A DNA stretch of 64,000 nucleotides from a virus. Lineage: Duplodnaviria > Caudoviricetes. This document shows, in pieces, positions 3,555-63,770 of this stretch. The stretch spans positions 1-64,000 of IMG/VR virus record IMGVR_UViG_3300037127_000056. One strand, 5' to 3'. The notes under the pieces were generated by a model. That model ran no database searches. It saw only the letters and a list, made by a program, of their open reading frames with translations, and was not told where the DNA came from. A program made the position numbers and the translations under genes. Each line of letters opens with the position of its first letter. Within the stretch, counting starts at the first letter, position 1.

Positions 3555-3943
3555 CTCATCTCCCCAGTTTCCCGCCGGCGGGAAAGCTCTTGCGTCGCCA
3601 ACCAGATCTCCCAACACGACAGGATCGGCGCGTCGGCGTAGAACCGCCAGTGCGTCCAGTACCAATACGATACATCTCTGATGAACTCGTCCGCGCCGAC
3701 GAATTGGCGAGAGCGCACCACGAGGTCAGTGAGCCTGTGGAGTTCGTTTTTGACGTCCCACACGATTTGCTCAAACCAAATTGGAACAATTACGGCACCG
3801 CGGGTGCTACCCGTCGTCGTCTCAATAAGACCGATTGCGGGACAGTCGGCCCATACAGTTGGCGAGACGTGGACATTCACCCCCTGACGGGCCCACCCAA
3901 CGATGGTCGAACCCAATGGGCCTATGAACGGGACGCTACCCAT
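3551..3943 (-). CDS. Family A paralog
   Basis: VPIWF...SYWY...WEIWLATQEL; TAGGGT-6-ATG. Confidence 0.75.
   Translation of the reverse strand: MGSVPFIGPLGSTIVGWARQGVNVHVSPTVWADCPAIGLIETTTGSTRGAVIVPIWFEQIVWDVKNELHRLTDLVVRSRQFVGADEFIRDVSYWYWTHWRFYADAPILSCWEIWLATQELSRRRETGEMR
3568..3585. repeat. dispersed palindrome copy 1
   Basis: TTTCCCGCCGGCGGGAAA; at the 3' end of one ORF, just upstream of start 3554. Confidence 0.95.
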
Positions 3944-3952
3944 GACCACACC

Positions 3953-4429
3953 CTACTCCATCTCATCGTAGCGATCAAGCATCATCTCGATGAGCGCCGG
4001 CAGCTGCAATTCCCACCATGCTTCCAGGTCGGCCGCGGTATCGAGGTACTCCTCATCATCGGGGGTCCGTGCCACGAATGCCGGCAGCTCAGCACCGGTG
4101 ATGACTTGCACCTCCGTCCAGGGCCACTCCGTCGCCATCTCTTCCGGCTCCCCGGTCTCGGGGTCGGTCTGTACGAGGCGCACCGCGAATGCCGTAGGAT
4201 CGTCTGTAGCGCGCTGTACCAGCGTCCAATCACCGCGGCTTACCTGCATGACTCCTACGGTCATCTCGGCGACGACGCGGCGGATGACGGCGATTCCGTG
4301 GGCAAGGGTGCGGGCGTCGCGGTCGCGGATGTCTTGGATCCGCTTCATCTCTCGATCGATGGTTCCGATCCAATGCGTCGCAGGGGAGACCACGATCGTC
4401 TGAGCCGCTTGGGGGCGCCGGTGACTCAC
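3953..4429 (-). CDS. hypothetical protein
   Basis: 158-aa ORF with a 4-nt overlap with the upstream gene; lacks the family A motifs. Confidence 0.7.
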   Translation of the reverse strand: MSHRRPQAAQTIVVSPATHWIGTIDREMKRIQDIRDRDARTLAHGIAVIRRVVAEMTVGVMQVSRGDWTLVQRATDDPTAFAVRLVQTDPETGEPEEMATEWPWTEVQVITGAELPAFVARTPDDEEYLDTAADLEAWWELQLPALIEMMLDRYDEME

Positions 4430-5046
4430 GTCGCTTGCACCTCTCGCATCGCGACCAAGGTTTCCCAGAATCGACGGAAGTCCTTGACCAGGGCATCGGC
4501 GGTTGTCTTGCTGTCGCGGTGATTCATCACTGATGAGAAAACATCGACCCCGGCGTAGTACTCGATGGCGTCCGTTTGATGGTTACACTCATTGAAATCA
4601 TCGGTATGTAGCCCGATGAGACGTCCTATGTCGGAACTCAGCCGCTCCGTAACGAATGCCTGGTAGCCATCTCCCCGGTGTCCGATCCGATACGCCACGT
4701 TGATAAGATACCACACCCACGCAGCCTCCAGCGCGAGCCAATCCGTGGTGACCAAGATGTCGGAGCGACGGAATAGGTCGATGGTGTGTCGATCGACGTT
4801 GAGATCATTGTCCGAGTACCCTGCGATACCAACCTGAGACGCCCAGATGGGTAGCCGTGTGCCTGGTGTAAATGACCAGCTTATTGGTGCGGTCTCCAGT
4901 TTGATCGAAAGTACCCATCGCGTTATGAAACAATCATTCCGCAAGGTGCCGTTGCGCGGGCGAAGCACGACGTGTTCATGTACCGTACCGTACTTCGCGA
5001 TCCTCTCACACACTCCGCGGAGTCGTGGTATGTGGCCATCAGACAT
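4426..5046 (-). CDS. Family A-related protein (longer variant)
   Basis: LPIWA...LEAAWVWY...RFWETLVAMRE. Confidence 0.7.
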   Translation of the reverse strand: MSDGHIPRLRGVCERIAKYGTVHEHVVLRPRNGTLRNDCFITRWVLSIKLETAPISWSFTPGTRLPIWASQVGIAGYSDNDLNVDRHTIDLFRRSDILVTTDWLALEAAWVWYLINVAYRIGHRGDGYQAFVTERLSSDIGRLIGLHTDDFNECNHQTDAIEYYAGVDVFSSVMNHRDSKTTADALVKDFRRFWETLVAMREVQAT

Positions 5047-5052
5047 CGGTGG

Positions 5053-5469
5053 TCAACCTAGAACGTTTCCCGCCGGCGGGACATCGTGTCGGTGACGTAA
5101 CTCGTGGTTCGCGATGGCAACTTTCCAAAATTGGACCATTGGACGAAAACGCGACTCAGCGAGCGCAACATGTAGACCATACCACTTGTAGGCTTGGTAC
5201 AGTTCTTGCTCAATTCGATTGGCCCATAACCGGCTTCGTCGGAACAGCTCTTTGAGCGTATTCTGCTGCCACGGATAGTCCATATAACATACGACGAGAT
5301 ATAGCCATGGAACAACCCCGACGTGTTTTATCTCGCTATGAAACCCGTCGTTCCTTGCCCGGATAAGGCGCACGGGCCCACCATACGCGTTGACCATAAT
5401 AGTCTCATCAGGATGACACCGAGACTCCATTTCGTGCAAGATCGTGCTGATGGCGTAGATGCTAGACAT
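5053..5469 (-). CDS. Family A paralog
   Basis: VVPWL...IEQELYQAYKWY...FWKVAIANHEL. Confidence 0.75.
   Translation of the reverse strand: MSSIYAISTILHEMESRCHPDETIMVNAYGGPVRLIRARNDGFHSEIKHVGVVPWLYLVVCYMDYPWQQNTLKELFRRSRLWANRIEQELYQAYKWYGLHVALAESRFRPMVQFWKVAIANHELRHRHDVPPAGNVLG
5068..5081. repeat. dispersed palindrome copy 2
   Basis: TCCCGCCGGCGGGA; just upstream of TAGGTT-8-ATG(5046). Confidence 0.95.
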
Positions 5470-5470
5470 C

Positions 5471-7072: not shown

Positions 7073-7110
7073 GTCTCGGGTTTCCCGGCGGGAATGTCAA
7101 CCGGATCAAG

Positions 7111-7455: not shown

Positions 7456-10344
7456 CTAGGCCGCCCACATCGCGGTCATCTGCTCAGCAGACACGTCGCA
7501 CAGGTCACTCGCCCGGCCGCGTACCGACACCGCGGGGAAGCCACTCACCGCGCGATGCCTGCGAATCGCTCGGAAGTCTGGCAACCGGTGGCCCCATTTC
7601 GAGGTGATAGATGGGATCCCGGTACCTGCATCACCCATCGAACCCGTCCGAATCAGGGAATCAATCACACCCTTGGTGACACCGATGCGTTCGCGGAAGT
7701 CCTTCTCTGCCGTGAGAGCCGCTAGGATCGCCGCTGCGCTGTTGTCGATGGTTTCACGGGTCTCGGGTGCGGGCTTGCTTACAACGGCTTGTGGGGCGTC
7801 TGTGGCGCTCTCATAGGTTTCACCTACGGCCCGAAGCCCATGCTCGACACGGATAGCATTGACCCCCGGGACATCGACACCATAGCGAGCCGACCACATG
7901 CCGGTCCGATGCTTCTGTGTCTGGAGCATCACCCCGGCGTCGATAAGCGCGTCCCTTGCGGCGATGGCGATAGCGATGCGCTTCGTACACCCGTCTCTGT
8001 GGACGGTGACGCGCCCGGAATCGATTGCCTCCAGCCGTTTCGTGGTGAGGGTTTCCCCGGCGTGTAGGGCATCGAGGATGCTCGTGGCGCACGTCGTGAG
8101 TCGCTTGATGGTTGATGCTCGCATCGGCTTGTCCGACAGGGTGGCGAAATCGATACGACCGATGAGAGTCGAGATGATGCCGTCTCCGAGGGCACCCACG
8201 GGGACAAGCTCTTGACCCGCCCGGAATGCCTTGACCTCATGTACCCGACCGACTTGGGTCTCACGATGGGCGATGGACTTGACGATCATGGCCTTGATGG
8301 CGGTGGGATCATCAAACGCTTGAGTCGCCCATGTCATGAGCATCTGCTCCGACGTATCGGCATCAATCCCGCGGGCGAGCATGAGGTAGCTGGTGAGCTG
8401 GCGAGTGGTGTCCCATGCGCCGGTGGATCCGTGCTGAACGAGCCCCTTGACCATGGCGGTCTCGCACCATGACGTCCACGCCTGACCGTGTGTGTCCCGT
8501 GGCAGAGACTGCACTTCTCGCAATGGTTTCGCGGGCTTGCCCGAAAGGGATCCACATAACAGTCCTTCTCTTCTCTCGTCCTTCTTCTTCCCGTCGCTGC
8601 GCTCCGGCCCGTGGGCCATCGCCGTGGCCCCGGTGAGGTGGGTTCCCGTCTCGCGAGCCATGTCTTGTGAGCCACCGTTCTCACCTCCGACCCCATCACA
8701 CCCGGGCGCCCCCGGCGCCCCCGGCGCCCCCCGAAAGGGATCCACATAACAGTCCTTCTCTTCTCTCTCTTCTCCCCTCCCCTTGTCTCCACCGCCTTGA
8801 TCTGTCGTAGTCTTCCCCACCTCTGTCTGATCCACCTTGCACGCGCGAGCGTCCCTCACCTTGCGGGAGTTGGCCTTGACCTTGCGCCGGGGACCGTTAC
8901 CCCCTTTCTTGTTTGAACCATCATGACCGCGTCGGGGATCGTCAAGCGACCCCATCAAGTGGTCCCCCCATGCCGACACCGACGTTGCCATCGCTTCCAT
9001 GGAAGCGTCATCACGGGGACCAATCGTCGCGGCATCGAACATCGCGGGGACTCGGGTCAAGTACTCCGCGTCGTCAACGAACGGGATGTTGTGGCTACCG
9101 TCCCACGAGACGCCGTCAATCAAGCGCTGACGCGGTCCCAGGGGAAGTCGCACCCCTCTCCCCATGGGGAACGGAAAGAGGTCCACACCGGTTACAGGGA
9201 GTCCTAGGGCACGGGCGTTGGCATCGAGGATTTTTGCCGCCGACTCGCGGTCCACGGCTTGGGTGAAGAACATCCAGATGTGGTAGCCGCCTCCGGGGGA
9301 TGTCGAGATCAGGGGCAGCTTGTTCTGGGACTTGTTGGCCAGGGCTTGGTACCACGTCCATGCCGTGTCGCGGGCTCGCTGGAAGTCGTCGTCGTGGGCA
9401 TCGATGTCAACGCACACCGCGGCCGTCTCATCCGGGAAGATGAGACCCAAGGGCTGGGTGTTCCGTTCGAGGTGCCGGCGGACGTCGAAGCCGGTGGCAT
9501 GGGAGTCGAGAAATGTCCGCCATGAGCCCCGTGCCTTACGGATGACCCCTTGATGCGTGAGCCCGGGATCGATGCGGGACATGATGGTTGCCATGATGCT
9601 CGCGGTGGTGACATCAAGGGTGGGGTTCTCGTCGGCATCTATGAGGTTGCCCCAACGGCGGATGGAGGTTTCGCGCTCTTCCCGTCTTTCCCGCCGGCGG
9701 GACGCCGCGATCTCAAGTTGCCGACGGTTGGTGTTCCATCCCCGGGTGTCGGCCGCGATAGTGATGGCATCGGGATCGATCGCGGCGTCGAAGATGCGAG
9801 TCAAGAGGTCATCCGTTTCGGTGACGGCAACCGACCTCAGCGTCTGGGCGTCACGGAAGTCCTGATGGGTCACCGGCAGCGGGGTCGCCCATGGTTTGGC
9901 GCAAGGCCAGGCATCCCGGAGTTCTTCGGTCTCGGCGAGTCCACGGTCCGTGAGGTAGTCGCGCCACCACTTCACGGCGGCGGTTCGCTCCATGGGGGCC
10001 TTGGTGATGAGGTCAATGATCCATGTTTTGTCCCGCGCCCAGAACCGGACCACGGGTTCGGCGCCGAAGTCTTTGCGGATGCTGGCACAGATGGCGCGGG
10101 CCTTGTCTTGGGTGTCGGCGCTGTAGCTTAGCCATCGGAGGTGACTGCCCGCGGTTTCGATCAAGGGGCTTTGGCCCGGGAAGTGACAGATCTTGGGCCA
10201 CTGCTTCACCAGGGCGGCGGCGGACATTTCCACAGGCGACCACTTCCCATGAGTGTCCGGCTTGACGACAACGAGATTGTCGTCGAAGAAGCTGGACATC
10301 ACCGCGACCCATGTGCTTACGTTCATCGGAGATTCTTCTGACAT
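7456..10344 (-). CDS. archaeo-eukaryotic primase (AEP)-domain replication protein (Rep/primase)
   Basis: AEP motifs VCVDIDAHD, STSPGGGYHIWMFF and DLFP...VRLPLG, then a low-complexity linker, a helical PriCT-like region and a wHTH-like region. Start from TTGTGA-17-TACATG-6-ATG. Confidence 0.75.
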   Translation of the reverse strand: MSEESPMNVSTWVAVMSSFFDDNLVVVKPDTHGKWSPVEMSAAALVKQWPKICHFPGQSPLIETAGSHLRWLSYSADTQDKARAICASIRKDFGAEPVVRFWARDKTWIIDLITKAPMERTAAVKWWRDYLTDRGLAETEELRDAWPCAKPWATPLPVTHQDFRDAQTLRSVAVTETDDLLTRIFDAAIDPDAITIAADTRGWNTNRRQLEIAASRRRERREERETSIRRWGNLIDADENPTLDVTTASIMATIMSRIDPGLTHQGVIRKARGSWRTFLDSHATGFDVRRHLERNTQPLGLIFPDETAAVCVDIDAHDDDFQRARDTAWTWYQALANKSQNKLPLISTSPGGGYHIWMFFTQAVDRESAAKILDANARALGLPVTGVDLFPFPMGRGVRLPLGPRQRLIDGVSWDGSHNIPFVDDAEYLTRVPAMFDAATIGPRDDASMEAMATSVSAWGDHLMGSLDDPRRGHDGSNKKGGNGPRRKVKANSRKVRDARACKVDQTEVGKTTTDQGGGDKGRGEEREEKDCYVDPFRGAPGAPGAPGCDGVGGENGGSQDMARETGTHLTGATAMAHGPERSDGKKKDERREGLLCGSLSGKPAKPLREVQSLPRDTHGQAWTSWCETAMVKGLVQHGSTGAWDTTRQLTSYLMLARGIDADTSEQMLMTWATQAFDDPTAIKAMIVKSIAHRETQVGRVHEVKAFRAGQELVPVGALGDGIISTLIGRIDFATLSDKPMRASTIKRLTTCATSILDALHAGETLTTKRLEAIDSGRVTVHRDGCTKRIAIAIAARDALIDAGVMLQTQKHRTGMWSARYGVDVPGVNAIRVEHGLRAVGETYESATDAPQAVVSKPAPETRETIDNSAAAILAALTAEKDFRERIGVTKGVIDSLIRTGSMGDAGTGIPSITSKWGHRLPDFRAIRRHRAVSGFPAVSVRGRASDLCDVSAEQMTAMWAA
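8540..8767. repeat. 38-bp perfect direct repeat (8540-8577, 8730-8767) with (GGCGCCCCC)x3 between; origin-like element inside the Rep gene
   Basis: CCCGAAAGGGATCCACATAACAGTCCTTCTCTTCTCTC occurs twice, 190 bp apart, and is read in different protein frames. Confidence 0.9.
9689..9702. repeat. dispersed palindrome copy 3
   Basis: Inside the Rep gene (SRRRE). Confidence 0.95.
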
Positions 10345-10386
10345 ACCACCCATGTAGCTGGATGGTAGATGGATCACAACCGGGGC

Positions 10387-10860: not shown

Positions 10861-11054
10861 TGAGATGCAATGATACGTGGATGCTTGCGCAACGCTACAT
10901 GGACGTGGTATCTTATGGGCAGTGGAATCAGGCCCATACATTGGGGTCGGCAATCATCGAGCACGTTCAGGGCAGTTCTTTCTCACACGATTTAGTGGGG
11001 CTGCGGTACTTGGCGAGGCAGATCGTCACGGGTCGTCCAGGAGGCTACACGTAA
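10860..11054 (+). CDS. small hypothetical protein
   Basis: TGATG/TAATG coupling to both neighbours. Confidence 0.5.
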   Translation: MRCNDTWMLAQRYMDVVSYGQWNQAHTLGSAIIEHVQGSSFSHDLVGLRYLARQIVTGRPGGYT

Positions 11055-11470
11055 TGCACGATACGACCAAATGGGTCATCACACGCGAGGCCGCGCGTCG
11101 ATTTCGTGACATGCCCGCAACTGAGATTGCATGTCGTTTGTCAGAGGACATCGGGTGGATCGGGACGCCGGTGGAACAGCTTTGGGCGATCGTGAGACGA
11201 CGGGCGAACCGTGATGGGACGTCCGTGAACTATCTGGAGTGTTCGCCACATTTTGCGATCCCGTGGTTCGCCGCGATTGCACACTTTATCGTTATCGCGA
11301 CCAATTGTGAGACCGTCGCAAGAACGTACACGTCATTGAATCGCCACGGGCAGTATACGTCAGCCAGGATTACTGCTATCGTGCTCACCGAAATGCTTCA
11401 GAATGATACGTGGGACTTGAGTACCGACGAGTTGCTGGAGCTGGCGGAGAGACTGGCCAGTGATGAGTGA
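11054..11470 (+). CDS. Family B paralog
   Basis: MHDTTKWVITREAARRF...TEMLQNDTWDLSTDELLELA. Confidence 0.75.
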   Translation: MHDTTKWVITREAARRFRDMPATEIACRLSEDIGWIGTPVEQLWAIVRRRANRDGTSVNYLECSPHFAIPWFAAIAHFIVIATNCETVARTYTSLNRHGQYTSARITAIVLTEMLQNDTWDLSTDELLELAERLASDE

Positions 11471-11474: not shown

Positions 11475-11502
11475 GCGCATTTCCCGCCGGCGGGAAATGC
11501 GC
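11475..11502. repeat. dispersed palindrome copy 4 (28-bp perfect)
   Basis: GCGCATTTCCCGCCGGCGGGAAATGCGC abutting TAGAGT-7-ATG(11516). Confidence 0.95.
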
Positions 11503-15256: not shown

Positions 15257-15351
15257 GGTCTGAATCATAGCTTAGCCACTTCGCGTGTCAAGGAAAACGT
15301 TCATAAAAATTTCCCTTGTGTTCGGTCTTGATGGCGTCTACATACCTCGGT

Positions 15352-16416
15352 ATGAGCGCAACAACGATCACACTAGACCATGTATCACTCAGCACCGCCC
15401 TCAGCATATGTGCGCCAGTAGCTGGAAAGTGGGAGCGCATCCATGGCCCCGCCGGCAACATCGCCATCGACTGGGATGGTGATTCAGCGACCGTCACAGC
15501 CTCCAGCAATGCGGTCACTGCAACGCATCGCGTGACCCTTGTTTCCGCTTTCCCGCCGGCGGGAAACATGATCGTCCCGGTTTCGGCGATCATGTCGGTC
15601 ATGGAATCGCGTGACATCACGATCACGACGGATGACGGTAGCAAGGCGACCATTCAGTCTGACCGCAACCGCAGGGCAGCGACGATATCGTCCAGGAACC
15701 TGGCACACATCGCATTGCCCATTGACACGTCGAACCGACCGGGCGATGTCAATGGGCAAGCTCTGTCCGATGCCATCACAGCGACGTCATGGGCGATGGG
15801 CAAGTCCGGTACCACCGTCGTCGAGTTCGGTCCCAACCCAACTGTAACGGCGTGTAACGGCGCCACCTTGGCTCAGGCTCGTGTCAGTGTCGTTGGCGCC
15901 TCTGATGGCCGCGTGCGGGTATCCAAAGATGACGCCAACACGTTGGGTACCGTGATGTCACGAATGGATCGAATGGGGATCCATTCCACGGACGAATACA
16001 CGTCGTTCGTGGGTGACGGCGCCCACATCAAGGTCGTATCGCTGGCACCTTCGTCGTACGAGTCGATGGTTGATATTCTCGATGAGACAACGACGGGCCC
16101 ATGTTCCGGCATCGATACCAAGACCCTTCAACAGGCACTGGCGCGGGTTGCTCCGTTCGCGACCAAGGGTGACTTCCACATCCAAGCGGCGGCCGATCGT
16201 TTGACCATCAAAGCGGTGTTGCCAGATGCCGGCGACGCCGAGACCTCGGTGGCGTGCCGTACCACGCGGGAATGGAAGGTCGGTGTCAACTTCGCGGCCT
16301 TGACCTCAGCTCTCAAGGCGTGTCACGAAGACGCGAGGCTTGCAAAGACGACATCGACGATCATGGTCTCGGCCCAAGACTATACGGCACACATCGGATT
16401 TTTTCTCGTGGAGTAG
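15352..16416 (+). CDS. dnaN: DNA polymerase III beta sliding clamp-like protein (divergent)
   Basis: 354 aa with the three-domain pattern; C-terminal LQQALARVAPFA...LTIKA...GDAETSVAC...VGVNFAALTSALK matches clamp domain III. Confidence 0.7.
   Translation: MSATTITLDHVSLSTALSICAPVAGKWERIHGPAGNIAIDWDGDSATVTASSNAVTATHRVTLVSAFPPAGNMIVPVSAIMSVMESRDITITTDDGSKATIQSDRNRRAATISSRNLAHIALPIDTSNRPGDVNGQALSDAITATSWAMGKSGTTVVEFGPNPTVTACNGATLAQARVSVVGASDGRVRVSKDDANTLGTVMSRMDRMGIHSTDEYTSFVGDGAHIKVVSLAPSSYESMVDILDETTTGPCSGIDTKTLQQALARVAPFATKGDFHIQAAADRLTIKAVLPDAGDAETSVACRTTREWKVGVNFAALTSALKACHEDARLAKTTSTIMVSAQDYTAHIGFFLVE
15549..15566. repeat. dispersed palindrome copy 5
   Basis: Inside the clamp gene (FPPAGN). 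Confidence 0.95.
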
Positions 16417-16479: not shown

Positions 16480-17895
16480 ATGAACGTAAGCATGATCACA
16501 ATCGCATCCGCCGCCGCATCACCACCCGATATTCTCAAAAAGATCCTATCAGGTGGAGTGTGTATTGATGACCCAATCCACCGCCCCGACCCGGCCGACC
16601 ACATCGAGATAGACTTTTCTCAAAAGAACAATCTCACGCGCCGGTACTTGCATTCGATCGAGAAAATTCCCGTCCTCGAACGGGATGACGAAACTGCCGT
16701 AGCACGGGCACTTGATGGTGCCAGCCGACGGAGACACGCCGCGATGTTGGTTCTCGGTACGCTACCGGCGATGGTCCTTGACTACGCCGTGATGGTCGAA
16801 GAAGGTCACATGGGCGCATCGCATTGGGTGGAGGCGGTTGATGGAACGGATGACGATTTCGAGCAACGGTTCGATGATGTTGTCACGGCGATGAGACGGG
16901 CTCGCCGCCGAGGGGACACCGCGACGGTGATACGGGAGTGTCTGCGATTCACCCTTCACGTGGATTTCTTGGAGCTGGCGGCCGAGAAGACCGCGATCAC
17001 TGTTCGCAAGCTTCGAACAGCTGCTGTTGCAGCTCGGAGTGGGTCCAACGCTGATCGATCGTTCGTCATGGCATGGACTCAAGCAACTGGCATGGACATT
17101 CACACCGCTCTTTCCTACGCCCGCGATTTCACCGACGCCGACGCCGACATGGTGGGGCCACGTTCCACCTTGATTCAAAGCAATCTCCGGTTGGTCGTGT
17201 CGCTTGCAAACAAGGCAGTGGCCAACAACATGCACATCCTTGATTTGGTTCAAGAAGGGAATCTTGGCCTCATCCGGGCGGTTCAGAAATTCAACTGGCG
17301 CTTGGGCTACAAGTTCTCGACATACGCGACGTGGTGGATCCGACAGGCTATAACGCGAGGCGTCAATGACGGGTCTCGCACGATCAGGCTACCCACACAT
17401 CTCATCGAAGAATACAAGGAACTCCGACACGCCATGCGGAACATCTTGGTCGAACAAGGCCGAGAGCCGACGATCGCAGAGATCGTGGAAGCCAGCGGCA
17501 TGGACGAAGATCGGGTGGTATTCCTTCTCAATATGGTCCGCGAACCGATTTCGTTGGAGTCCCCGGTGCCAGGAGACGATGGGGACATGTCCCGGCTCGG
17601 GGACTTCTTGCCCGATCCGAACGGAAAGGACCCTGGCACGGAAACCGCCGCGGTTCAAATGGCTGAGGGGATCCGCCGCGTGCTTTCGACGTTGCCACCG
17701 CGGTTGGAGCTAATCCTCCGCCGCCGGAATGGTATCGGAGTCACCGATTCCGAGACGCGCAACGCTATCGGTGACGATGTAGGTGTGTCGTTCGAACGGA
17801 TCCGACAGTTGGAACTTCGAGCGCTGGAGCTACTGCGGTCCCGCGACCGGGTGAAGTTTTTCCGTGAGATCCTCGGTGAGATCGACGACATCTAG
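16480..17895 (+). CDS. RpoD-like (group 1) sigma-70 factor
   Basis: Region 1.2 RRYLHSI; region 2 [42 protein letters not shown]; region 3 RTIRLP, PISLE; region 4 ERIRQLE. Confidence 0.95.
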
Positions 17896-22761: not shown

Positions 22762-22777
22762 TTCCCGCCGGCGGGAA
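22762..22777. repeat. dispersed palindrome copy 6
   Basis: Intergenic, upstream of start 22727. Confidence 0.95.
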
Positions 22778-48244: not shown

Positions 48245-48547
48245 CTAGTCCTCATCCCACGACAGTTCGCTGTTGCCGCCGCGACGAGTCTCGCGATTTC
48301 GAAGACGGTTCAGCAAGTGAAGGTAGTCAAGAGCTTCCACCAACGTAAGCTCCATCACTTCACCCATGCGGAACGTGAATCCGGAGCCACGACTCTGGTA
48401 GCAGAGGTTCCCGATGATCTCGGTGATGTCTTGCCGGCTCGGTATCGGGACGACACCGCCGACGATCAGTCCTTCATCTGGCCGCGGGTCTTGCGCTTGC
48501 GCTTCGTTGAATTCGGACGCCAGAAGCTGGACATTCCTCCCAAAGGG
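48245..48547 (-). CDS. -1 frameshift extension of the chaperone (gpGT analogue)
   Basis: Slippery C CCT TTG at 48547-48541; the -1 frame is open to TAG 48247-48245 and has no early ATG. Confidence 0.7.
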   Translation of the reverse strand, partial: PFGRNVQLLASEFNEAQAQDPRPDEGLIVGGVVPIPSRQDITEIIGNLCYQSRGSGFTFRMGEVMELTLVEALDYLHLLNRLRNRETRRGGNSELSWDED

Positions 48548-49344
48548 AGGTCCACCTCACCGGACCATCCGCAGTTGCGGTCGTTGCAAGACAGGAAGAT
48601 CGACGTCTCGATGCCGCCGTCGTAGTCATCCATGAGATCTTGCAGCTCGACGAGACGGTAGCTGAAATCGCCCTTTTTCAGGACCTCTGCAATCTCAGAT
48701 CGGGCATTCGAGGTGTACACGACATTCCCGTCGGGATCCCGCGTGACGCCGACATCTCCGAAGCTGATCATGCGCGCCGCCAGCGACCGCGTCACCATCT
48801 CACCCGGAGCCTCACCGACAAACCGCTGGACGCTGTCTTGATCGCGACCACGCATGAGGCGGAACCGTACAGGGATCCCTTCCCACTCGATCTCGAAGAC
48901 GTTGTCGCCATCTTGGATCTTCTTGCGAGACTCGTCCGGCAACGGGATAACCTCATCGGTGACGATCTTCTCCAGGTCGAGCGTCGCGACACCCATGCCG
49001 CCGATGGGCTCATCCGGCAGCTGGAGCTTCCCCCGGCACGGCGTCGGAAGGGCGCGGGGACACTGGTGATCGATGGGAAGCCATCGCCCCCACACTGGGA
49101 TCCGCGTCGCCAGAAGCGCGACACTGCGATCACAGATCAAGACGTCGTTCCAGTTCACGGTACCGTCCTTGATCTGATACGGACCCGGATCGATCACGGC
49201 CGTCGTGCATTCCGTGAGCAACGTGGTTTCCATCGACGCCGGGCTCATCCGGCTGCGGACTTGGTCATTGGCCCACTTGATGTTCCATCCTCGGAGCGAG
49301 ACGGTGAGGCCGCTGGGGAGTTCAATCTCGAATGTAGTCGCCAT
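48466..49344 (-). CDS. tail/baseplate assembly chaperone (T4 gp26-like, gpG analogue)
   Basis: IELPSG start, DR..LL..RI, two Cys pairs, C-terminal DLPL..FW. Confidence 0.7.
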   Translation of the reverse strand: MATTFEIELPSGLTVSLRGWNIKWANDQVRSRMSPASMETTLLTECTTAVIDPGPYQIKDGTVNWNDVLICDRSVALLATRIPVWGRWLPIDHQCPRALPTPCRGKLQLPDEPIGGMGVATLDLEKIVTDEVIPLPDESRKKIQDGDNVFEIEWEGIPVRFRLMRGRDQDSVQRFVGEAPGEMVTRSLAARMISFGDVGVTRDPDGNVVYTSNARSEIAEVLKKGDFSYRLVELQDLMDDYDGGIETSIFLSCNDRNCGWSGEVDLPLGGMSSFWRPNSTKRKRKTRGQMKD

Positions 49345-49368: not shown

Positions 49369-49386
49369 TTTCCCGCCGGCGGGAAA
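49369..49386. repeat. dispersed palindrome copy 12
   Basis: Between divergent starts 49344 and 49407. Confidence 0.95.
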
Positions 49387-49406: not shown

Positions 49407-50150
49407 ATGGCCCAAGCCGACTGGAATGTCCTCAACAACACCATCCCTCAAGCCAGCGTCGAACGCGGAAGTACCTCCGGCATCCCGCGACCCAACGGCG
49501 GCGGGCAGTTCGTCTATGGCTTCAACAGCTTGCAGAGTATCGCAAACGGTGCCAGTGCCCAGTACCTCAACCTCACGGACTTCAACCCCACGGCAAAGGG
49601 GGCCCGGATCGCCGCCGCGATCCAGCGAGGACTCGGTGCCAATGACACCGGCTTTTCGGCGTGGGTGTATGTATGCCTTCAGAGCAACGACACCAATGAT
49701 GTCGGGTACATGCTCGGACTCTCGGACGCGTCACCATCCCGGCTCATCCTCCGTAAGGGTGTGCTGAGTTCCGGCATCCCCGATGACACCCCCGACCCGG
49801 CGGAGAATGGCAACCTCCTGGCCAGCACCAACACCTACGCCAGGGGGACGTGGGTCCACGTGCAACTCACCGCGATCGTGCAAGACAACGGCGACGTCGT
49901 GCTCACCGCTGAGACCAATGACCTCGATGCCAATGCTGTGACGGCGCCGGTGTGGACAACCCCCGGCGGTATGGAAGGCCCGCAAGACGGGGTGGCCGAT
50001 GGTCCGATCACTGGGTTCGTCGATGATGCCTTGCAGGTCAACACCGGGACGGCACCCCTTGTATCGGGCTTCATGGGATTCGGAATGGCCGTCAATGGGG
50101 CCGCTCGGCGCAGCTTCTTCGACCACATCACCGCGGCACGACAGACCTGA
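49407..50150 (+). CDS. putative virion structural protein
   Basis: MAQADW...RPNGGGQFVYGFNSL, beta-rich; resembles proteins of myxobacterial prophage tail regions (recalled). Confidence 0.6.
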   Translation: MAQADWNVLNNTIPQASVERGSTSGIPRPNGGGQFVYGFNSLQSIANGASAQYLNLTDFNPTAKGARIAAAIQRGLGANDTGFSAWVYVCLQSNDTNDVGYMLGLSDASPSRLILRKGVLSSGIPDDTPDPAENGNLLASTNTYARGTWVHVQLTAIVQDNGDVVLTAETNDLDANAVTAPVWTTPGGMEGPQDGVADGPITGFVDDALQVNTGTAPLVSGFMGFGMAVNGAARRSFFDHITAARQT

Positions 50151-50744: not shown

Positions 50745-50810
50745 GGTTCCGGTGTACATCATCCGGCAACGGATCACAAGTCCCGCCGGTGGGAATCGTA
50801 CAATGACGGT

Positions 50811-51159: not shown

Positions 51160-51594
51160 ATGAACGATGCAACTCAATGGAATCTTTGGGCATCTAATGG
51201 CTCCATCAGAACCGCGAGCAAGTTCCGGCTTCTTCCCGACACCTCCGGAACATCCCCGGGAGAGATGTGGCGTGTGGTCCGGACGTTCTATGCAGCGTCC
51301 AAGTCAAGTGCGATGTCCATTATGGAAGATGAAATCCGGTGTGCTGGCAACGAGCCGGTGTGGGATGACGGACCATATGAGCCCGCACCGGACGTCTTCA
51401 CTGGTAGGGTAGATGACGTTACCACAACCGATGCGGATCTCGCTAGAATGTGGTGTGTCGTAGATGTTTGTGGGCGTATGCATGTTCGGCCATGGGAACC
51501 CCATCTTCAATCACTTCGCTCAAAGCGATGGGCCGCACCGGTCTCCAGGGCACTTGCGCGGGAAACGTTGATTCCCGCCGGCGGGAATGGTTGA
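51160..51594 (+). CDS. hypothetical protein
   Basis: Own promoter. Confidence 0.6.
   Translation: MNDATQWNLWASNGSIRTASKFRLLPDTSGTSPGEMWRVVRTFYAASKSSAMSIMEDEIRCAGNEPVWDDGPYEPAPDVFTGRVDDVTTTDADLARMWCVVDVCGRMHVRPWEPHLQSLRSKRWAAPVSRALARETLIPAGGNG
51571..51588. repeat. dispersed palindrome copy 13
   Basis: ATTCCCGCCGGCGGGAAT, 2 nt before TTGACA. Confidence 0.95.
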
Positions 51595-53921: not shown

Positions 53922-54497
53922 ATGCATGAGCCAGTTCCCATCCGTTACGTCGCGCTGTTAGATCCCAAGATCGATCGTGTGAGGCCAACATTCGCCGCCG
54001 CCATTCTTGCCAATGATGCAGGTCATGGCGTCATCGTTCCGTCGGCTTCAAAGACCCGAGGGCAGCTCGATGCATTCTTCGAACGATGGGGACTCCCGAT
54101 TGGATGTACCTACAAGTGGGCCGCCATCGACCCGGGATGGGATACCCCGGTATGGATTGACGCGCCGGGAGTGTTTTCATCCATGGCGCTGGAGTTCATG
54201 AGTGTCCACCAGGCCCGGGTGTACGCGCCCCCCGCGAATTGGTTCACCGTGCTACGTATGCTAGAACCGGCATGCGTCAATCGCGCGTCCAAGAATGAGC
54301 GGTACAACGGTCTGATCCAATTGAGGAAAATCATGTACCCCGTGGTCATCCCGATGTGGTTGAACCGACACGCCGCCCGCATCGGGATATCGACTCGGAC
54401 CCGTGATTGGCAGACCGTTGTCATCGATGCGCTCTACGAGAGCGGATATTCGGTGCCGGAACAATGGGTGGCATGGCTCAACGAGAGACAGAGGTAG
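53922..54497 (+). CDS. hypothetical protein
   Basis: TTGACA-18-CACGAT-6-ATG. Confidence 0.65.
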   Translation: MHEPVPIRYVALLDPKIDRVRPTFAAAILANDAGHGVIVPSASKTRGQLDAFFERWGLPIGCTYKWAAIDPGWDTPVWIDAPGVFSSMALEFMSVHQARVYAPPANWFTVLRMLEPACVNRASKNERYNGLIQLRKIMYPVVIPMWLNRHAARIGISTRTRDWQTVVIDALYESGYSVPEQWVAWLNERQR

Positions 54498-55114
54498 ATC
54501 TCTGCAAGCGATTGATCGATGCCGCCGACGGGTGGACGGCTTACCCAGAGGTCGGACGATGGGACATCGTCCTGGAACGGGACGGTATCACCGTTGGGGT
54601 TCAAGCCAAGCTTCAGTGCTCGTGGCAACTCTTGGACCAGGTCACGCGTTCCCGCCGGCGGGAAATCCCCAACCATCGGACCATCTTGATCCCGAAGTTC
54701 AACAAGCGGTTCATGCGATTCGCGCGCCGACTCGGTGTCGGAACATACACCGCGAGTGGGCTGGCAACGATGGCCGGGTTCAAGCCGCGGGGCCCATATC
54801 AAGAATCGGACATATGGCTGCCCGATGTTCCATCCCCAACGCCGGCGGGATCGCCGTCGCCGTCATCGTTGACACCGTGGCGACAAGCGGCGATCCGTCT
54901 ATGCATCCTTCTCGACCGGCAAGGCTTCCTCAGCGGCGCTGACTTCGCCTCTCATGGCGTCAATCCTCAGCGGTGGGTTACCCGGGGGTGGCTTGTGAAA
55001 GACGGGTGGTGGGCGGCTGAGGGGCGGAGGTGGCGACGCTACACCCGCGGACCGGCGGAGACGATGCCGGACACCGGATGGGACGTGATCCGGGACCAAC
55101 TCACGCCGGCTTGA
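54473..55114 (+). CDS. PD-(D/E)xK-fold protein (DUF2161-like)
   Basis: YPEV..WDIV...VGVQAKL; C-terminal TPWRQAAIRL. Confidence 0.55.
   Translation: MAQRETEVDLCKRLIDAADGWTAYPEVGRWDIVLERDGITVGVQAKLQCSWQLLDQVTRSRRREIPNHRTILIPKFNKRFMRFARRLGVGTYTASGLATMAGFKPRGPYQESDIWLPDVPSPTPAGSPSPSSLTPWRQAAIRLCILLDRQGFLSGADFASHGVNPQRWVTRGWLVKDGWWAAEGRRWRRYTRGPAETMPDTGWDVIRDQLTPA
54649..54664. repeat. dispersed palindrome copy 14
   Basis: Inside the PD-(D/E)xK-like gene. Confidence 0.95.
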
Positions 55115-56492
55115 ACCGGACGCCATCCCACACGATGACGTCTCCGGCTGTCGCGTCAATTCCATTGATGAACGCGGGCGGAATGATCATCGGATCGTCG
55201 TTGCACTGAGCCCATTCGACCACGAGGCCGCCGGGGTATCCAAACACCTTTGGCAGTGTGAGCCGAACTCTGGCCTGTTCCCCGGGTTCTGTCTCGATGT
55301 TGGGTGACCATTCCTGCCAGCGGGAATTGAGTGCGTACAACCGTTCCACACTGGTACGGTAGATGTGTTCGGCGGCAACGTATTCCGCATCGAGCCCATC
55401 CGAATCTCTCGACGCATGGGTGCCGGGGAGTAGGGCACGGCTCAGAGAATAGGTCATCGTAGCTTCGAACGTGTACAGCTGCGCGAGGTCATCCCGTACC
55501 TGTGGGTCCTGTAGTGGGGCAGGATCATTGATGAATGTTTCTTGAACCATGTAGTGATCCAAATGGAGATGCTCCAACAGTTGGGGCCATGCCCCGATGT
55601 TCTTGACCCACTTGGCGTGCTCCCAGTCATTCACGTCGCAGGGCGGGGCGACAACACGCTCGGCGATGCGATCAAGCCGGGCGTGTTCGTTGGTACGGAA
55701 AGTGCGGGGGAAGTCGGGGGACGATAGGAGATCCCAGGTGTCCCGACGCACCCACGTGGCACTCAGGCGGGCCAAGACACCGAGCGCGAACTGTTGGTCT
55801 TCTGGAAAACCGAGATAGAATCCGGTGAGGTCTTTCCACCGTCGGCCGAAGTTTGCGACCCGGATGTGTGTGTGTACTTCATACCCATCACCACTTTGTC
55901 TCAAGACAAGTATGGCCCCCGCATCTGGGGTGGCATCACGGGTGAACCACTCTGAGAAGAATCTGTCGATTCCGGGATCTTCGTCACTGCCGGTGTAGGC
56001 GATGATGCGAAGGTCTTTCGATGATGGGTGTTGCCATACCGGTTTCCCGAGATATTGGCCAGCGGAAACAAACCCCAGGTCTGGGAGCCGGTCGAGTGTC
56101 GATGCCCGCGCCTCCCATGGTGGGGTCATGATGCTGCGCATGGCGTCGGAAAGTAGATAATCGGGGTAATCACCCAAGCCGTTGCTAGCGACCTTCACAA
56201 GCGATGCGACACCACTGAGGCCCAATTTTTTGGCGTATACCAACGCGGCGCCGGCTTCGTGGAATTCTTCCATGCCGTTGCAGCCGTTCCTACCAAAGCA
56301 TGGAACCACGGCGCGGTAGGGGACTGCGCTAGTCCATTCACCCGATGGCAACATGTCGCCAGGAGAGATCTTGACGGAACCCAGAGGATGCACCCGGTCA
56401 TCCATGGTAATTGGTCGAAGGATGATACAGACAGAGTCGTCCCCGGGGCGGATCGCCCCAAAGAGACAGTCATATTTGTTGAAAGTACCCAT
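55101..56492 (-). CDS. hypothetical phage protein
   Basis: 463-aa ORF; TTGACG-18-TACACA-6-ATG. Confidence 0.7.
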   Translation of the reverse strand: MGTFNKYDCLFGAIRPGDDSVCIILRPITMDDRVHPLGSVKISPGDMLPSGEWTSAVPYRAVVPCFGRNGCNGMEEFHEAGAALVYAKKLGLSGVASLVKVASNGLGDYPDYLLSDAMRSIMTPPWEARASTLDRLPDLGFVSAGQYLGKPVWQHPSSKDLRIIAYTGSDEDPGIDRFFSEWFTRDATPDAGAILVLRQSGDGYEVHTHIRVANFGRRWKDLTGFYLGFPEDQQFALGVLARLSATWVRRDTWDLLSSPDFPRTFRTNEHARLDRIAERVVAPPCDVNDWEHAKWVKNIGAWPQLLEHLHLDHYMVQETFINDPAPLQDPQVRDDLAQLYTFEATMTYSLSRALLPGTHASRDSDGLDAEYVAAEHIYRTSVERLYALNSRWQEWSPNIETEPGEQARVRLTLPKVFGYPGGLVVEWAQCNDDPMIIPPAFINGIDATAGDVIVWDGVRFKPA

Positions 56493-60886: not shown

Positions 60887-60893
60887 CCCCACG

Positions 60894-60913
60894 GTTTCCC
60901 GCCGGCGGGAAAC
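60894..60913. repeat. dispersed palindrome copy 15 (20-bp perfect)
   Basis: GTTTCCCGCCGGCGGGAAAC between the sheath and tube genes. Confidence 0.95.
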
Positions 60914-60934
60914 GCCACGGGGAGAGGAGACAAC

Positions 60935-61802: not shown

Positions 61803-61811
61803 GGTGTAGCC

Positions 61812-61840: not shown

Positions 61841-61911
61841 GCCCGTCGAACACAAAAATCGAACATCGTCTGAGTTGATCTCACCGCGCCCGTTGTGGTA
61901 GGTTCGCCCCC

Positions 61912-62559
61912 ATGAATGATGACGCATTGATGGCCGGCATCTACGAGAGCATGGTTGATCTCCTGGGACTCTCAACGGACCCCTTTGACCCGAAGTCACC
62001 CAAGGCGCTGACGGACGCCCTAGCCCTTGCCCTCATACGGCCGGAGAAGCGTGCCAAGGCGGTCCTGGAGTCGGCTACGGATTGGCCTCTGCACATAGTC
62101 ATTCGGTACCTTGTCACGCATTCTCCGATATACGTTAGACCCACCGGATGGGGCACGTATGTCCCGGGATCGTCGAGATGGAACACACCGGACACGTTGG
62201 TCACCACATTCGACTGGCTCATCGATAACGGGCGGGATGACCTCGTACAAGACGCCATGCTCTGGGGTGAGACGCAATGGGCAGTTGGGTTGTATGCCGG
62301 CGATGACCTTCTGGGGCGATACAAAGTATCGCAATCATCCACCATGTTCTCGTATGGATATGTAAGGGACGCGTCGGTCCCTTCGGGAACACGGTCTCAA
62401 ATCATCGATGACGATTCTATTTATAGGACCATCGTCGTCACACATCGAGACACTGATGCCGACTACTCCGTCTATAGTATCGACACGGTCAAACAGATAC
62501 TTGTTAAAACGGCACATAGTCCGGTTTACAACTGCTCTTGGATTGACATCATCCACTGA
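61912..62559 (+). CDS. hypothetical protein
   Basis: TTGATC-18-TAGGTT-7-ATG. Confidence 0.65.
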   Translation: MNDDALMAGIYESMVDLLGLSTDPFDPKSPKALTDALALALIRPEKRAKAVLESATDWPLHIVIRYLVTHSPIYVRPTGWGTYVPGSSRWNTPDTLVTTFDWLIDNGRDDLVQDAMLWGETQWAVGLYAGDDLLGRYKVSQSSTMFSYGYVRDASVPSGTRSQIIDDDSIYRTIVVTHRDTDADYSVYSIDTVKQILVKTAHSPVYNCSWIDIIH

Positions 62560-63097
62560 GTCCTCCGTCGAGTACTCGTAGTCGGGGTCGCGCTTTTCGT
62601 TCCCGGAGCCACCGGTAGATCGTTGACTTGCTGGCCCCGAGGTGTTTGCCTCGGACGTCGTACCAATGCGCGACGGAGCCGTACTTTGCCTTCCCGGCGA
62701 TGGCGGCATCCACGATTTCCCGCCGGCGGGAATCACTGAATCGTCCTCCCCCATCAAGAACCACGTCGGTATCATCCAATTCGATAACCTCGGGGTCCGG
62801 CTCATCCCTCACCGAATGCATCACCGCGGCGACGAACTCACGGAACATCCATGGGTGCCGCTCAGATGCCGTTGACGGTCGCCTCCATGTACCGACCCTC
62901 TCTGGGTGCGGGACAACACGGGCGCCGGCTACGGCTCGCTCAAGCTCACTGACGCCATTGAACGTCGCGGCGACCATCATGGTTCCAGCCACGGACATCC
63001 GCAACACGATTCGCCCACCGACGAGAGTTTCGGTTGTGAACAGCCGGCCTCGCGAAGTCTTGAACCTATCACCGGGCTTGTACTTGTACACATGCAT
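62549..63097 (-). CDS. protein with C-terminal HTH
   Basis: KHLGASKSTIYRWLRE HTH; TTGCCC-17-TAGGCT-6-ATG. Confidence 0.6.
   Translation of the reverse strand: MHVYKYKPGDRFKTSRGRLFTTETLVGGRIVLRMSVAGTMMVAATFNGVSELERAVAGARVVPHPERVGTWRRPSTASERHPWMFREFVAAVMHSVRDEPDPEVIELDDTDVVLDGGGRFSDSRRREIVDAAIAGKAKYGSVAHWYDVRGKHLGASKSTIYRWLRERKARPRLRVLDGGLSG
62717..62732. repeat. dispersed palindrome copy 16
   Basis: Inside the HTH gene. Confidence 0.95.
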
Positions 63098-63153
63098 CCC
63101 GTAAGCCTATACGAATCCATCGTAAAGGGCAACCCTGAGCTACATTCATTGAT

Positions 63154-63738
63154 ATGTCGGATTGGGTATGTGGGTGCGGTGCCGACCGAATTTTGCTTGA
63201 CTTCAGGGGGCGGCCGTTCCGAGGATGTTCGAGGTACCCGGAGTGCAAGGACACGGCTCGCGGCACCCCATGGGATCGCGCAATCTCAGTCTACGCGAAG
63301 CGGGCGCCACGGCTTGCCAACGGTCGTGTCGTCGCCGGCCTGGACTACGGCTACACGGTGTGCAAGATTTTGCGCGCCGCGGAGTCTCGTCTCGTGATCG
63401 TGACATTTTCAATCGGCGATGATGGCATGGTTGATGCATTGGTGAACGATGCCATTGACCGCGGCGTTGATGTCGAAGTATGGGCCGGCGGTGTCGCCCG
63501 GAAACAAGGTCAACGGCTCAGTGATCTCGGCGCCCGCGTATGGTTACCGAAGCCGGGAACCAACTTGCATGCCAAGTTCATCGTCGCCGATGGTCTCGTC
63601 GCGGTCGTCGGTTCCGCGAACCTGGCGCAGACCAGTTTGACCCGCAACCTAGAGGTCGGCGTGATCTCGACCAAGGATGTCTCGATGTGGGCGGGGCAAT
63701 GGCGGCGCGACGCCGTCCGACGATTCCGCGTGCTTTGA
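63154..63738 (+). CDS. zinc-ribbon + single-HKD phospholipase D-family nuclease
   Basis: CGC...FRGCSRYPEC (topoisomerase-type Zn ribbon); HAKFIVAD...GSANL...NLE. Confidence 0.85.
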   Translation: MSDWVCGCGADRILLDFRGRPFRGCSRYPECKDTARGTPWDRAISVYAKRAPRLANGRVVAGLDYGYTVCKILRAAESRLVIVTFSIGDDGMVDALVNDAIDRGVDVEVWAGGVARKQGQRLSDLGARVWLPKPGTNLHAKFIVADGLVAVVGSANLAQTSLTRNLEVGVISTKDVSMWAGQWRRDAVRRFRVL

Positions 63739-63740
63739 CC

Positions 63741-63770
63741 TTGATTTCCCGCCGGCGGGAATGCTAGTGT
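63741..63770 (+). promoter_or_regulatory. promoter with the palindrome in the -35/-10 spacer
   Basis: TTGATT-tcccgccggcgggaatgc-TAGTGT-7-ATG(63778). Confidence 0.75.
63746..63761. repeat. dispersed palindrome copy 17
   Basis: In the promoter spacer of ORF 63778. Confidence 0.95.

Follow-up and report, generated by a model that had tools for sequence, protein, structure and literature searches.

What keeps one 14-bp palindrome, letter for letter, at site after site along a phage genome, and what kind of protein would read it? The dyad TCCCGCCGGCGGGA occurs as 17 exact copies in the window, by which we mean the whole 64,000-nt stretch of DNA analysed here, and as 28 copies in the complete 116,337-bp phage record. 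All 17 start coordinates given in a previous reading of the letters alone (the sequence-only reading) were correct, and the near-zero chance expectation estimated there held up: about zero copies are expected, and none appeared in 100 dinucleotide shuffles. Within coding sequence, 15 copies were observed compared with 0.14 in synonymous-codon shuffles, with all three reading frames used. Coding copies in the window encode SRRRE or PPAG, as had been read previously, and PAGG is found farther along the genome; SRRRE is encoded by the word 8 times, in unrelated proteins. A Logan assembly made independently from another run also contains the copy at 60897, indicating that the word is not an assembly artefact. 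The exact and degenerate copies in the window are as follows.

3570–3583: exact copy at a gene junction, in the final 19 nt of ORF 3551–3949 (minus strand; SRRRE) and 16 nt before the start of 3168–3554 (minus strand)
5068–5081: exact copy, intergenic; the −10 TAGGTT of a leaderless gene (start 5046, minus strand) lies 7 nt downstream
7082–7094: degenerate copy, TTCCCGGCGGGAA, with the central 2 nt (CC) deleted (previously placed at 7081)
9689–9702: exact copy deep in the 965-aa primase-like ORF 7456–10353 (minus strand; SRRRE)
11475–11502: 28-bp perfect palindrome built on the exact copy 11482–11495, which lies 11 nt past the stop of 11054–11470 (plus strand) and is followed 7 nt later by the −10 TAGAGT of a leaderless ATG at 11516
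15551–15564: exact copy in ORF 15331–16416 (plus strand; PPAG)
19938–19951: degenerate copy with 2 mismatches, within the ribonucleotide reductase gene
22763–22776: exact copy, intergenic, 4 nt past the stop of the DUF6094 methylase-helicase gene 22781–26551 (minus strand) and upstream of 22440–22727 (minus strand)
30159–30172: exact copy deep in the 1030-aa fvmX7-domain ORF 28274–31366 (minus strand; SRRRE)
32419–32432: exact copy in ORF 32244–33509 (minus strand; SRRRE)
34496–34509: exact copy forming the −35/−10 spacer of the MoxR ATPase promoter (minus strand; TTGATT, spacer, TAGCGT, 7 nt, ATG at 34477), 1 nt past the stop of 34511–35458 (minus strand)
35934–35946: degenerate copy, TCCCGCGGCGGGA, with a 1-nt deletion, within a helicase gene
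37308–37321: exact copy in the DEAD_2/Helicase_C_2 helicase ORF 35543–37423 (plus strand; PPAG)
39851–39864: exact copy 1 nt past the stop of 39445–39849 (plus strand), upstream of the leaderless tape-measure gene (ATG 39898) and 20 nt upstream of its −10 TACACT
43584–43597: degenerate copy with 1 mismatch, TCCCGCCAGCGGGA
49371–49384: exact copy in the 62-bp gap between divergent leaderless genes 48466–49344 (minus strand) and 49407–50150 (plus strand), a position that is not transcribed; a −10 TAAAAT lies 10 nt downstream
50781–50794: degenerate copy with 1 mismatch, TCCCGCCGGTGGGA
51573–51586: exact copy, intergenic; a TTGACA-18-CATAGT promoter serving a leaderless gene (start 51628, plus strand) lies 4 nt downstream
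54650–54663: exact copy in ORF 54464–55114 (plus strand; SRRRE)
55312–55325: degenerate copy with 2 mismatches, missing from the previous list
60897–60910: exact copy in the interval that separates the tail sheath gene (stop 60886) from the tail tube gene (Shine–Dalgarno-led start 60935)
62718–62731: exact copy in ORF 62549–63097 (minus strand; SRRRE), whose 182-aa product has a weak HTH match at its C terminus
63747–63760: exact copy 8 nt past the stop of the PLD-like nuclease gene 63154–63738 (plus strand), forming the promoter spacer of a 697-aa AAA ATPase (TTGATT, 17 nt, TAGTGT, 7 nt, ATG at 63778)

Our own gene calls put 7 of the exact copies deep in ORFs and 10 at junctions or in intergenic DNA, in agreement with the seven in-gene copies counted before. 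The 28-bp palindrome reported at 11475 is real, and the five near-variants listed with it all exist, although two had been misplaced by 2–4 nt (19936 and 43580, for 19938 and 43584).

The word behaves as an all-or-none dyad. Its core octamer CGCCGGCG falls within the full 14-mer at 28 of its 32 genomic occurrences, and half-sites of 7–11 nt outside dyads are not enriched, lying close to the Markov expectation in five genomes; on the latter ground we rejected a Chi-like recombination hotspot. The central 4 nt are themselves palindromic, and T..A flanks extend most of the 28 identical 14-mers to 16 bp (5′ T in 21 of 28 copies, 3′ A in 24 of 28), whereas other lineages prefer R..Y. Selection acting on the DNA itself keeps the word exact.

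The copies are placed where the genome tolerates the word, namely in intergenic DNA, gene ends and variable coding stretches. They are enriched at gene boundaries both in this phage (P = 9 × 10⁻⁵) and in the unrelated 43-kb siphovirus G002 (P = 2 × 10⁻³), and their spacing is more even than random, with smallest gaps of 1,029 bp here (P = 0.0003) and 1,184 bp in G002 (P = 0.005); copies in this phage average about one per 4 kb and are never less than 1 kb apart. TANNNT lies 6–8 nt upstream of 41 of the 151 called starts compared with 1 in the control, and a dyad sits 4–40 nt upstream of such a −10 in 12 strict cases and about 16 relaxed ones, at sigma-70-type promoters of leaderless genes. These counts bear out the previously claimed association with promoters and junctions. 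The distance from dyad to −10 varies over its whole range without helical phasing, so the promoter association may be only a by-product of a preference for intergenic DNA.

Seven tandem junctions carry a copy 1–13 nt past the upstream stop codon, and many copies in G002 and in R350, a relative of this phage, fall between a stop codon and the next Shine–Dalgarno sequence. Such positions, together with the extension of intergenic copies to 7–12-bp stems of −17 to −23 kcal/mol, are consistent with a hairpin acting in RNA, as a 3′-end stabiliser, terminator or REP-like processing signal between cistrons. We consider this quite improbable, as T-rich sequence precedes the dyad and A-rich sequence follows it, an arrangement opposite to that of a terminator and offering no U-tract whichever strand is read; intragenic copies fold no better than shuffles; the loop letters are palindromic in both words (TCCCGCCGGCGGGA here, TCCACGCGCGTGGA in R350), with no variants of the G–U type; structure alone would not require the same 14 letters in unrelated phages; and no Rfam family matches. 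In addition, five copies sit in gaps between divergent leaderless start sites and are therefore not transcribed, which argues for a site in DNA rather than an RNA hairpin. An intrinsic terminator was rejected on the T and A flank counts given above and on the absence of copies from all 30 convergent junctions in the phage.

The identical 14-mer is iterated in at least two phage lineages unrelated to this one: G002 carries 13 copies, and members of a ~47-kb family (G001, G010, G011 and G012) carry 4–6 each. BLASTP and profile searches found no shared proteins among the three lineages. Within family C, one site is identical in four genomes with flanks only 70–78% identical; it lies in an MT-A70 methylase gene, where it also encodes a conserved SRRRD peptide. 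Other family-C sites arise in place by substitution, with length unchanged, within homologous sequence. Of 24 family-C copies, 2 fall no more than 15 nt from the end of an alignment (1.4 expected), and on this count, close to expectation, we rejected a mosaic-boundary sequence marking homology breakpoints for module exchange.

Gain of copies in place could also reflect a self-spreading word with little function of its own, propagated like HIP1 through short-patch conversion or a biased repair process, either of the host or operating in co-infected cells. The all-or-none exactness of the copies fits such a process, as do amino-acid sequences bent to accommodate the word, SRRRE being the repeated case. 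We nevertheless regard it as distinctly unlikely: the even spacing and the enrichment at boundaries suggest that placement itself is selected, one copy has been conserved amid diverged flanks, neither a donor template nor an enzyme is known, and the sampled bacterial genomes hold no trace of such a drive. In about 690 of these genomes (401 Actinomycetota, 151 Myxococcota, 120 Bryobacterales and about 19 others), TCCCGCCGGCGGGA is at chance level, with at most 2 copies in each save one; the Actinomycetota count takes in four unpublished genomes (G020, G101, G167 and G286), with 1 copy each. The exceptional genome has 25 copies (20 checked), each within one identical repeated IS-like element. 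These counts, and the location of 15 of the 28 phage copies in ORFs, led us to reject a REP/RAYT element. A HIP1-like host genome rich in the word may still exist.

The explanation we favour, although we put it at somewhat less than an even chance, is that the dyad, usually as T-TCCCGCCGGCGGGA-A, is a putative double-stranded DNA site for a symmetric, probably dimeric protein, that it is operator-like, and that its reader is probably host-encoded or mobile. Unrelated phages that have no protein in common with this one iterate the identical word, so a phage protein specific to one lineage is most likely not the reader. The sequence-only reading had proposed an operator or genome-organising mark bound by a dimeric protein of the phage itself; a DNA-level dyad under selection, associated with junctions and promoters and spread evenly in a way that suits a dimeric reader with an operator and/or organising role, survives from that proposal, but the phage's own protein as reader finds no support, given at least two unrelated lineages with the same 14-mer and no detectable common protein. 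A host factor, or a factor on some other exchangeable element, exploited by several phages, is the more likely reader. A protein bound over the −35 or spacer, or just upstream of the −35, would occlude RNA polymerase. With about half of the copies at sigma-70-type promoters, some 15 transcription units would be co-regulated in this operator-like way; targets would include the MoxR, AAA-ATPase and tape-measure promoters plus several divergent pairs, and intragenic copies would act as extra anchoring or roadblock sites. Against this explanation, candidate small proteins adjoining sites gave no Pfam matches, 28 exact copies with very few graded variants would be unusual for a transcription-factor regulon, and even spacing is not expected of operators. 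Moreover, a host common to the motif-bearing phages is not assured, because gene starts are leaderless in this phage and Shine–Dalgarno-led in the others.

A regulator belonging to this phage lineage could also read the word, as a stoperator-like global operator, with the other lineages having an unrecognisably diverged reader or using the word differently. R350 has 8 copies in 41 kb of its different word, TCCACGCGCGTGGA, three of them at orthologous junctions, and the tape-measure junction (39851 here) also has a palindrome, of its own sequence, in a relative. The outer TCC...GGA common to both words, on partly orthologous junctions, fits co-evolution of site and reader; the lineage-dependent flanks and the many ORFans adjoining sites point the same way. 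A phage-encoded regulator is nonetheless unlikely, given the lack of any common protein by BLASTP or profile search among the three lineages with the identical 14-mer, and given that five other relatives have no iterated palindrome in homologous 22-kb regions.

The methylase genes near several copies raise a further alternative, in which the word is a target or control site of a phage DNA methyltransferase, another modification enzyme or a restriction-linked enzyme, with the copies marking or protecting the genome. The sole copy conserved across family C lies in the MT-A70 gene, another follows the stop of this phage's DUF6094 methylase-helicase gene by 4 nt, and the metagenome loci L428 and L430 have 3–4 copies with a 38-bp period directly after a 218-aa protein homologous to the N-terminal domain of the family-C methylase (34% identity, E = 1e-19). 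The core CGCCGGCG is also a type II recognition sequence in actinobacteria. We hold this alternative to be very doubtful. Different lineages carry methylases of different families, neither this phage nor G002 has a homologue of the family-C enzyme's N-terminal domain, and the SRRRD constraint may explain part of the conservation of the family-C copy; restriction targets are normally avoided by phages rather than enriched, and methylases are not known to have 14-bp specificity.

Perfect 14–16-bp palindromes that are evenly spread and, like chromosomal parS, also lie inside genes might suggest a centromere or packaging function, with parS- or pac-type sites bound by a partition or terminase protein. 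This is scarcely probable at all. ParB_N (PF02195) had no match in five motif-bearing phage genomes (G000, G002, G010, G011 and G001), while 11 of 14 control genomes scored, and the partition mark suggested previously finds no reader there. The copies are dispersed rather than clustered, a pac or cos site occupies one locus only, and nothing points to the packaging role that had also been raised.

Several known systems resemble this one in part. The KorB operators (OB) of the IncP plasmid RK2 are about a dozen identical 13-bp palindromes over a replicon of ~60 kb, some overlapping promoters and others distant or in genes, all read by a dimeric global regulator. The 28 identical 14-mers here are likewise perfect palindromes of 13–16 bp dispersed over a replicon, but KorB belongs to the ParB family and its gene is on the same replicon as its sites, whereas here there is no ParB_N domain and the word also occurs in unrelated phages sharing no protein. 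The stoperators of cluster A mycobacteriophages and the conserved inverted repeats (CIRs) of Streptomyces phage phiC31 are 20–30 near-identical sites for one silencing repressor and, as here, short sites scattered through a phage genome in promoters and between and inside genes. Stoperators are asymmetric and oriented with transcription, and stoperator and CIR phages are temperate and encode their own repressor; the word here is a perfect dyad without orientation, evenly spaced and crossing phage lineages, with no repressor or integrase among the approximately 45 proteins scanned of some 150 ORFs. REP and terminator hairpins share GC-rich palindromes just past stop codons, but here there is no U-tract, 15 of the 28 copies are in genes, five are in untranscribed promoter gaps, and the word is not abundant in the ~690 bacterial genomes searched.

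HIP1 (GCGATCGC), an 8-mer that saturates host chromosomes, is similarly an exact palindrome at high density in coding and non-coding DNA that bends protein sequences; the word here is a 14-mer, biased to junctions and promoters and spaced at about one per 4 kb, and of the genomes searched only those of phages had it. Finally, phi29-family phages carry several copies of the 16-bp parS palindrome of their host, whose chromosome holds few. There the host protein and chromosomal sites are known, and the word here differs from canonical parS, but the precedent indicates that phages can accumulate the site of a host factor.

The 14-bp palindrome TCCCGCCGGCGGGA (hereafter the word) occurs 17 times in the window and 28 times in the whole genome of this phage, a 116,337-bp virus record that is rated complete and whose first 64 kb make up the window. 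The 17 positions listed in the sequence-only reading, made before any database search, all proved exact. Dinucleotide shuffles contained no copy against the 17 in the window, and the called genes held 15 copies against 0.14 after synonymous-codon shuffling of the same genes; coding copies span three frames, specifying SRRRE or SRRRD eight times, PAGG five times and PPAG twice. Copies are all-or-none, in that the full 14-mer contains every CCCGCCGGCGGG 12-mer and 28 of the 32 CGCCGGCG octamers, with only six degenerate copies in the window. Flanking T (21/28) and A (24/28) extend it to a 16-bp dyad. Half-sites of 7–11 nt showed no enrichment outside the dyads, and the working unit is therefore the symmetric whole; a Chi-like half-site reading was rejected on the same grounds. 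Open reading frames traverse copies and an independent assembly is concordant, with the copy at 60897 recurring there, which rejects an assembly artefact. The iteration is real, and stronger than the sequence-only reading knew.

Judging by the structural proteins it encodes (portal, head protease, tail sheath, tail tube and tape-measure protein), we assign this phage as contractile-tailed. No close isolated phage was found; for its sheath protein, metagenomes yielded about 400 relatives at 45–55% identity, many of them on contigs of 100–120 kb. The phage also encodes a class II-type ribonucleotide reductase, helicases, a primase-like protein, a DUF6094 methylase–helicase fusion and a MoxR/fvmX7 'ternary system' module. 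Compared with colinear relatives, the structural genes are scrambled in order and orientation. The features with positions are as follows (genome coordinates).

16492-17895, plus strand: sigma-70-family factor of full length, regions 2, 3 and 4 all present; Myxococcota is the commonest phylum of its nearest Atlas clusters, which is weak as host evidence
27678-35458, and 63778 onward: MoxR AAA+ ATPase, 1030-aa fvmX7-domain protein and distant AAA ATPase, like bacterial 'ternary' conflict systems
39.9 kb: tape measure
58.8 kb: sheath and tube
76.7 kb: portal
80.8 kb: protease
93064-95586 (L346:9064-11586), minus strand: 840-aa protein with a weak homing-endonuclease (Hom_end) match at residues 215–299, which may be an intein
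8545, 8735, 53556 and 53839 (in the window), 71208, 71485, 90808, 91018 and 101577: second repeat family, in which a roughly 30-bp core, CCGAAAGGGATCCACATAACAGTCCTTCT, is invariant and a CT-rich tract comes after it; often in inverted pairs 210–290 bp apart in the largest intergenic gaps, with two copies inside the primase-like ORF

To place the copies we used our own gene calls, made from codon usage and comprising 151 called starts. Thirteen copies are centred in intergenic DNA, which makes up 12.8% of the genome (a six-fold enrichment), and for 16 of the 28 the nearest gene end is no more than 60 nt away (P = 9e-5). The copies avoid one another: the smallest gap is 1029 bp (P = 0.0003 if placement were random), and the coefficient of variation of the spacing is 0.63 (P = 0.009). 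At 41 of the 151 called starts TANNNT precedes the start codon by 6–8 nt, compared with one at a control offset, and these starts are predicted to belong to leaderless genes that each have a sigma-70-type promoter of their own. With about 41–55 leaderless genes and about 55 small leaderless transcription units, the architecture is unusual among phages; the genome has 61 strand switches (31 divergent and 30 convergent junctions). Between 4 and 40 nt upstream of the –10 box of a leaderless gene we counted 12 copies by strict and about 16 by relaxed criteria. The dyad forms the spacer of TTGATT-N17/18-TAGYGT-7-ATG in two predicted promoters, those of the MoxR gene (34477) and the AAA ATPase gene (63778), and elsewhere adjoins a TTGAC-type –35 element. 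The distance between dyad and promoter shows no phasing, a pattern more consistent with occlusion, or with plain co-location in short stretches of intergenic DNA, than with activation. Five copies sit between divergent leaderless starts and so cannot belong to either transcript.

The word could instead act as an RNA hairpin, which remains a rival given that intergenic copies are predicted to form hairpins of 7–12 bp. The flanks, however, are the reverse of those of an intrinsic terminator, being U-rich on the 5′ side and A-rich on the 3′ side, and none of the 30 convergent junctions carries a copy. Shuffled sequences fold at least as well as the intragenic copies, the would-be loop of four central letters is itself a palindrome, and an Rfam search returned no matching family, which rejects a known RNA family. 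Because of these five features, we conclude that the word would be read as duplex DNA, by something symmetric.

Scans of IMG/VR showed that TCCCGCCGGCGGGA is also iterated in further viral contigs. An unrelated 43-kb siphovirus of 69% GC with all genes on one strand (G002) has 13 copies; its terminase shares 55% identity with the terminases of Gordonia and Tsukamurella phages, and Gordonia phage Posh, the nearest isolated phage to its lineage (B), has none. A family of 46–50-kb phages with terminal repeats (G001, G010, G011, G012, G013, G014 and more; hereafter the 47-kb family) carries 2–6 copies each. In each of these genomes the word outnumbers every other 14-bp palindrome. G002 shows the same kind of boundary bias (P = 0.002) and even spacing, with a smallest gap of 1184 bp (P = 0.005). 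In G002 and the 47-kb family the preferred flanks are R..Y, often CG..CG, whereas in this phage they are T..A. Searching by BLASTP down to E = 0.5 and with profile HMMs of the 47-kb family, we found no DNA or protein common to this phage and either G002 or the 47-kb family except a tape-measure domain, which rejects a phage-encoded reader (the putative protein recognising the word) common to the lineages. A lineage-borne regulator remains a rival reader.

In the 47-kb family, four genomes have one intragenic copy in identical form although its flanks are only 70–78% identical. Other copies are lineage-specific, and at those places relatives have ordinary sequence of the same length; copies therefore arise by substitution rather than insertion, and a mobile insertion was rejected. 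Copies showed no enrichment at homology breakpoints, which rejects mosaic junctions as their source. Conversion as the force driving the word stays among the rivals.

The copy conserved in the 47-kb family lies inside an MT-A70 methylase gene and there specifies SRRRD, a conserved peptide in the N-terminal domain; in G010 and G011 copies also cluster around the methylase gene, within about 3 kb. Scanning metagenomes for two copies 4–34 nt apart yielded 12 heterogeneous loci, one pair of which appears eukaryotic, with flanking ORFs matching Myosin_head and Tudor_5. Only two of the 12 were informative (L428:10811-10900 and L430:2555-2682, on JGI contigs of 21 and 47 kb). In both, an iteron-like array of 3–4 copies of TTGTCCCGCCGGCGGGACAA with a 38-bp period comes directly after a DUF1016_N-like 218-aa gene; on its other side is an ORF of 1727 aa or more, which extends beyond the locus. 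The 218-aa protein matches DUF1016_N weakly and is homologous to the methylase N-terminal domain (142 residues aligned at 34% identity, E 1e-19). No homologue of this domain was found in this phage or G002, so it cannot be the common reader, and we treat it as a lead for the 47-kb family only. A further rival is that the word is itself a methylase target. The product of 62549-63097, which the sequence-only reading had named as a candidate binder, shows no homology to the L430 protein, and a ParB/parS-type system, also raised there, lost its reader, as no ParB_N domain was found in five phage genomes that carry the word. Separately, in two AT-richer ENA contigs (L419 and L422, 47–48% GC), TCCCGCCGGCGGGA stands at the head of a 35-bp unit that is repeated in tandem, with 3–4 copies.

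Among relatives of this phage, no iterated palindrome was found in 15–24 kb of homologous DNA from G009, its nearest IMG/VR relative (sheath 49% identical), or from four further relatives. A further relative, the NCBI contig JAXOUH010049625.1 (66% GC, with colinear structural genes led by Shine–Dalgarno sequences), has a second word, TCCACGCGCGTGGA, eight times in the 41.4 kb read, usually extended to CCAG...CTGG and with a smallest gap of 1311 bp. Most of these copies follow a stop codon and precede the next ribosome-binding site. The junctions of three of the eight are orthologous to ones that bear the word in this phage; one is upstream of the tape-measure gene, one is at the small gene that follows portal/MuF, and one is near the homologue of 49407-50150. 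TCCCGCCGGCGGGA and TCCACGCGCGTGGA are alike in length, in their outer TCC...GGA and in their central C|G. Iteration of TCCACGCGCGTGGA was not found in IMG/VR. It does occur 2–60 nt from the locus start in six IMG/VR viral contigs (L410, L401, L397, L383, L400 and L377), a hint that some group of phages has it as a terminal sequence.

Bacterial genomes carried the word at chance level, with 0–2 copies each in 401 Actinomycetota (including the unpublished G020, G101, G167 and G286, one copy each), 120–121 Bryobacterales and 151 Myxococcota, and 1–2 in about 19 others. A scan of the whole collection gave, among the matches listed, only single hits per 8-kb stretch. For the bacteria sampled, which may omit the phage's own host, these counts reject a host-genome signature; the chromosome of that host may still be rich in the word. 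One Bryobacterales MAG with 25 copies (0–2 in six congeners) was a red herring, as all 20 copies examined lie inside one identical repeated IS-like element. Among 120 bacterial hit loci no common neighbouring gene family was found, and a conserved regulon context was rejected, save for orthologous Streptomyces loci. There a 20-bp version, GTGTCCCGCCGGCGGGACAC, accompanied by further half-sites close by, lies in conserved intergenic DNA upstream of genes of one family (L130, L178, L190, L215 and L227, of which the first three are Streptomyces genome contigs), and may be a native operator.

The best-supported mechanism is that the word is a duplex-DNA site for a putative symmetric protein. Overlapping many promoters in this phage, it would act as an operator, and its even spread suggests a role needing regular coverage of the genome. 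As reader we favour a host-encoded or otherwise exchangeable factor, because the word crosses lineages that have no common protein and is absent above chance level from the sampled bacteria. The sequence-only reading had proposed a dimeric phage protein acting through a global operator or a genome-organising mark; its symmetric duplex-DNA site is supported and its phage-borne reader is not, the word-sharing lineages having no protein in common. A more specific reading, which we consider possible but rather unlikely, is that unrelated phages have each gathered the exact, evenly spaced word to recruit or titrate one dimeric DNA-binding protein, from the host or otherwise shared, that has few sites or none on bacterial chromosomes. 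The word would then be the virus's side of hijacking a host factor, and the sister words of sister phages (TCC-N8-GGA) suggest that they have followed different alleles of that factor.

If one factor reads the word across unrelated phages, it offers a compact and experimentally tractable handle on phage–host interaction: a 30-bp duplex could capture the reader, and the word could mark host linkage for uncultured phages. Its 12-mer core was found in no relevant paper among those searched by sequence, and a keyword search returned nothing relevant. Iterated operator-like sites can be common to several phage lineages: in known systems such sites are private to one repressor–phage pair, whereas here the word is common to phage lineages.
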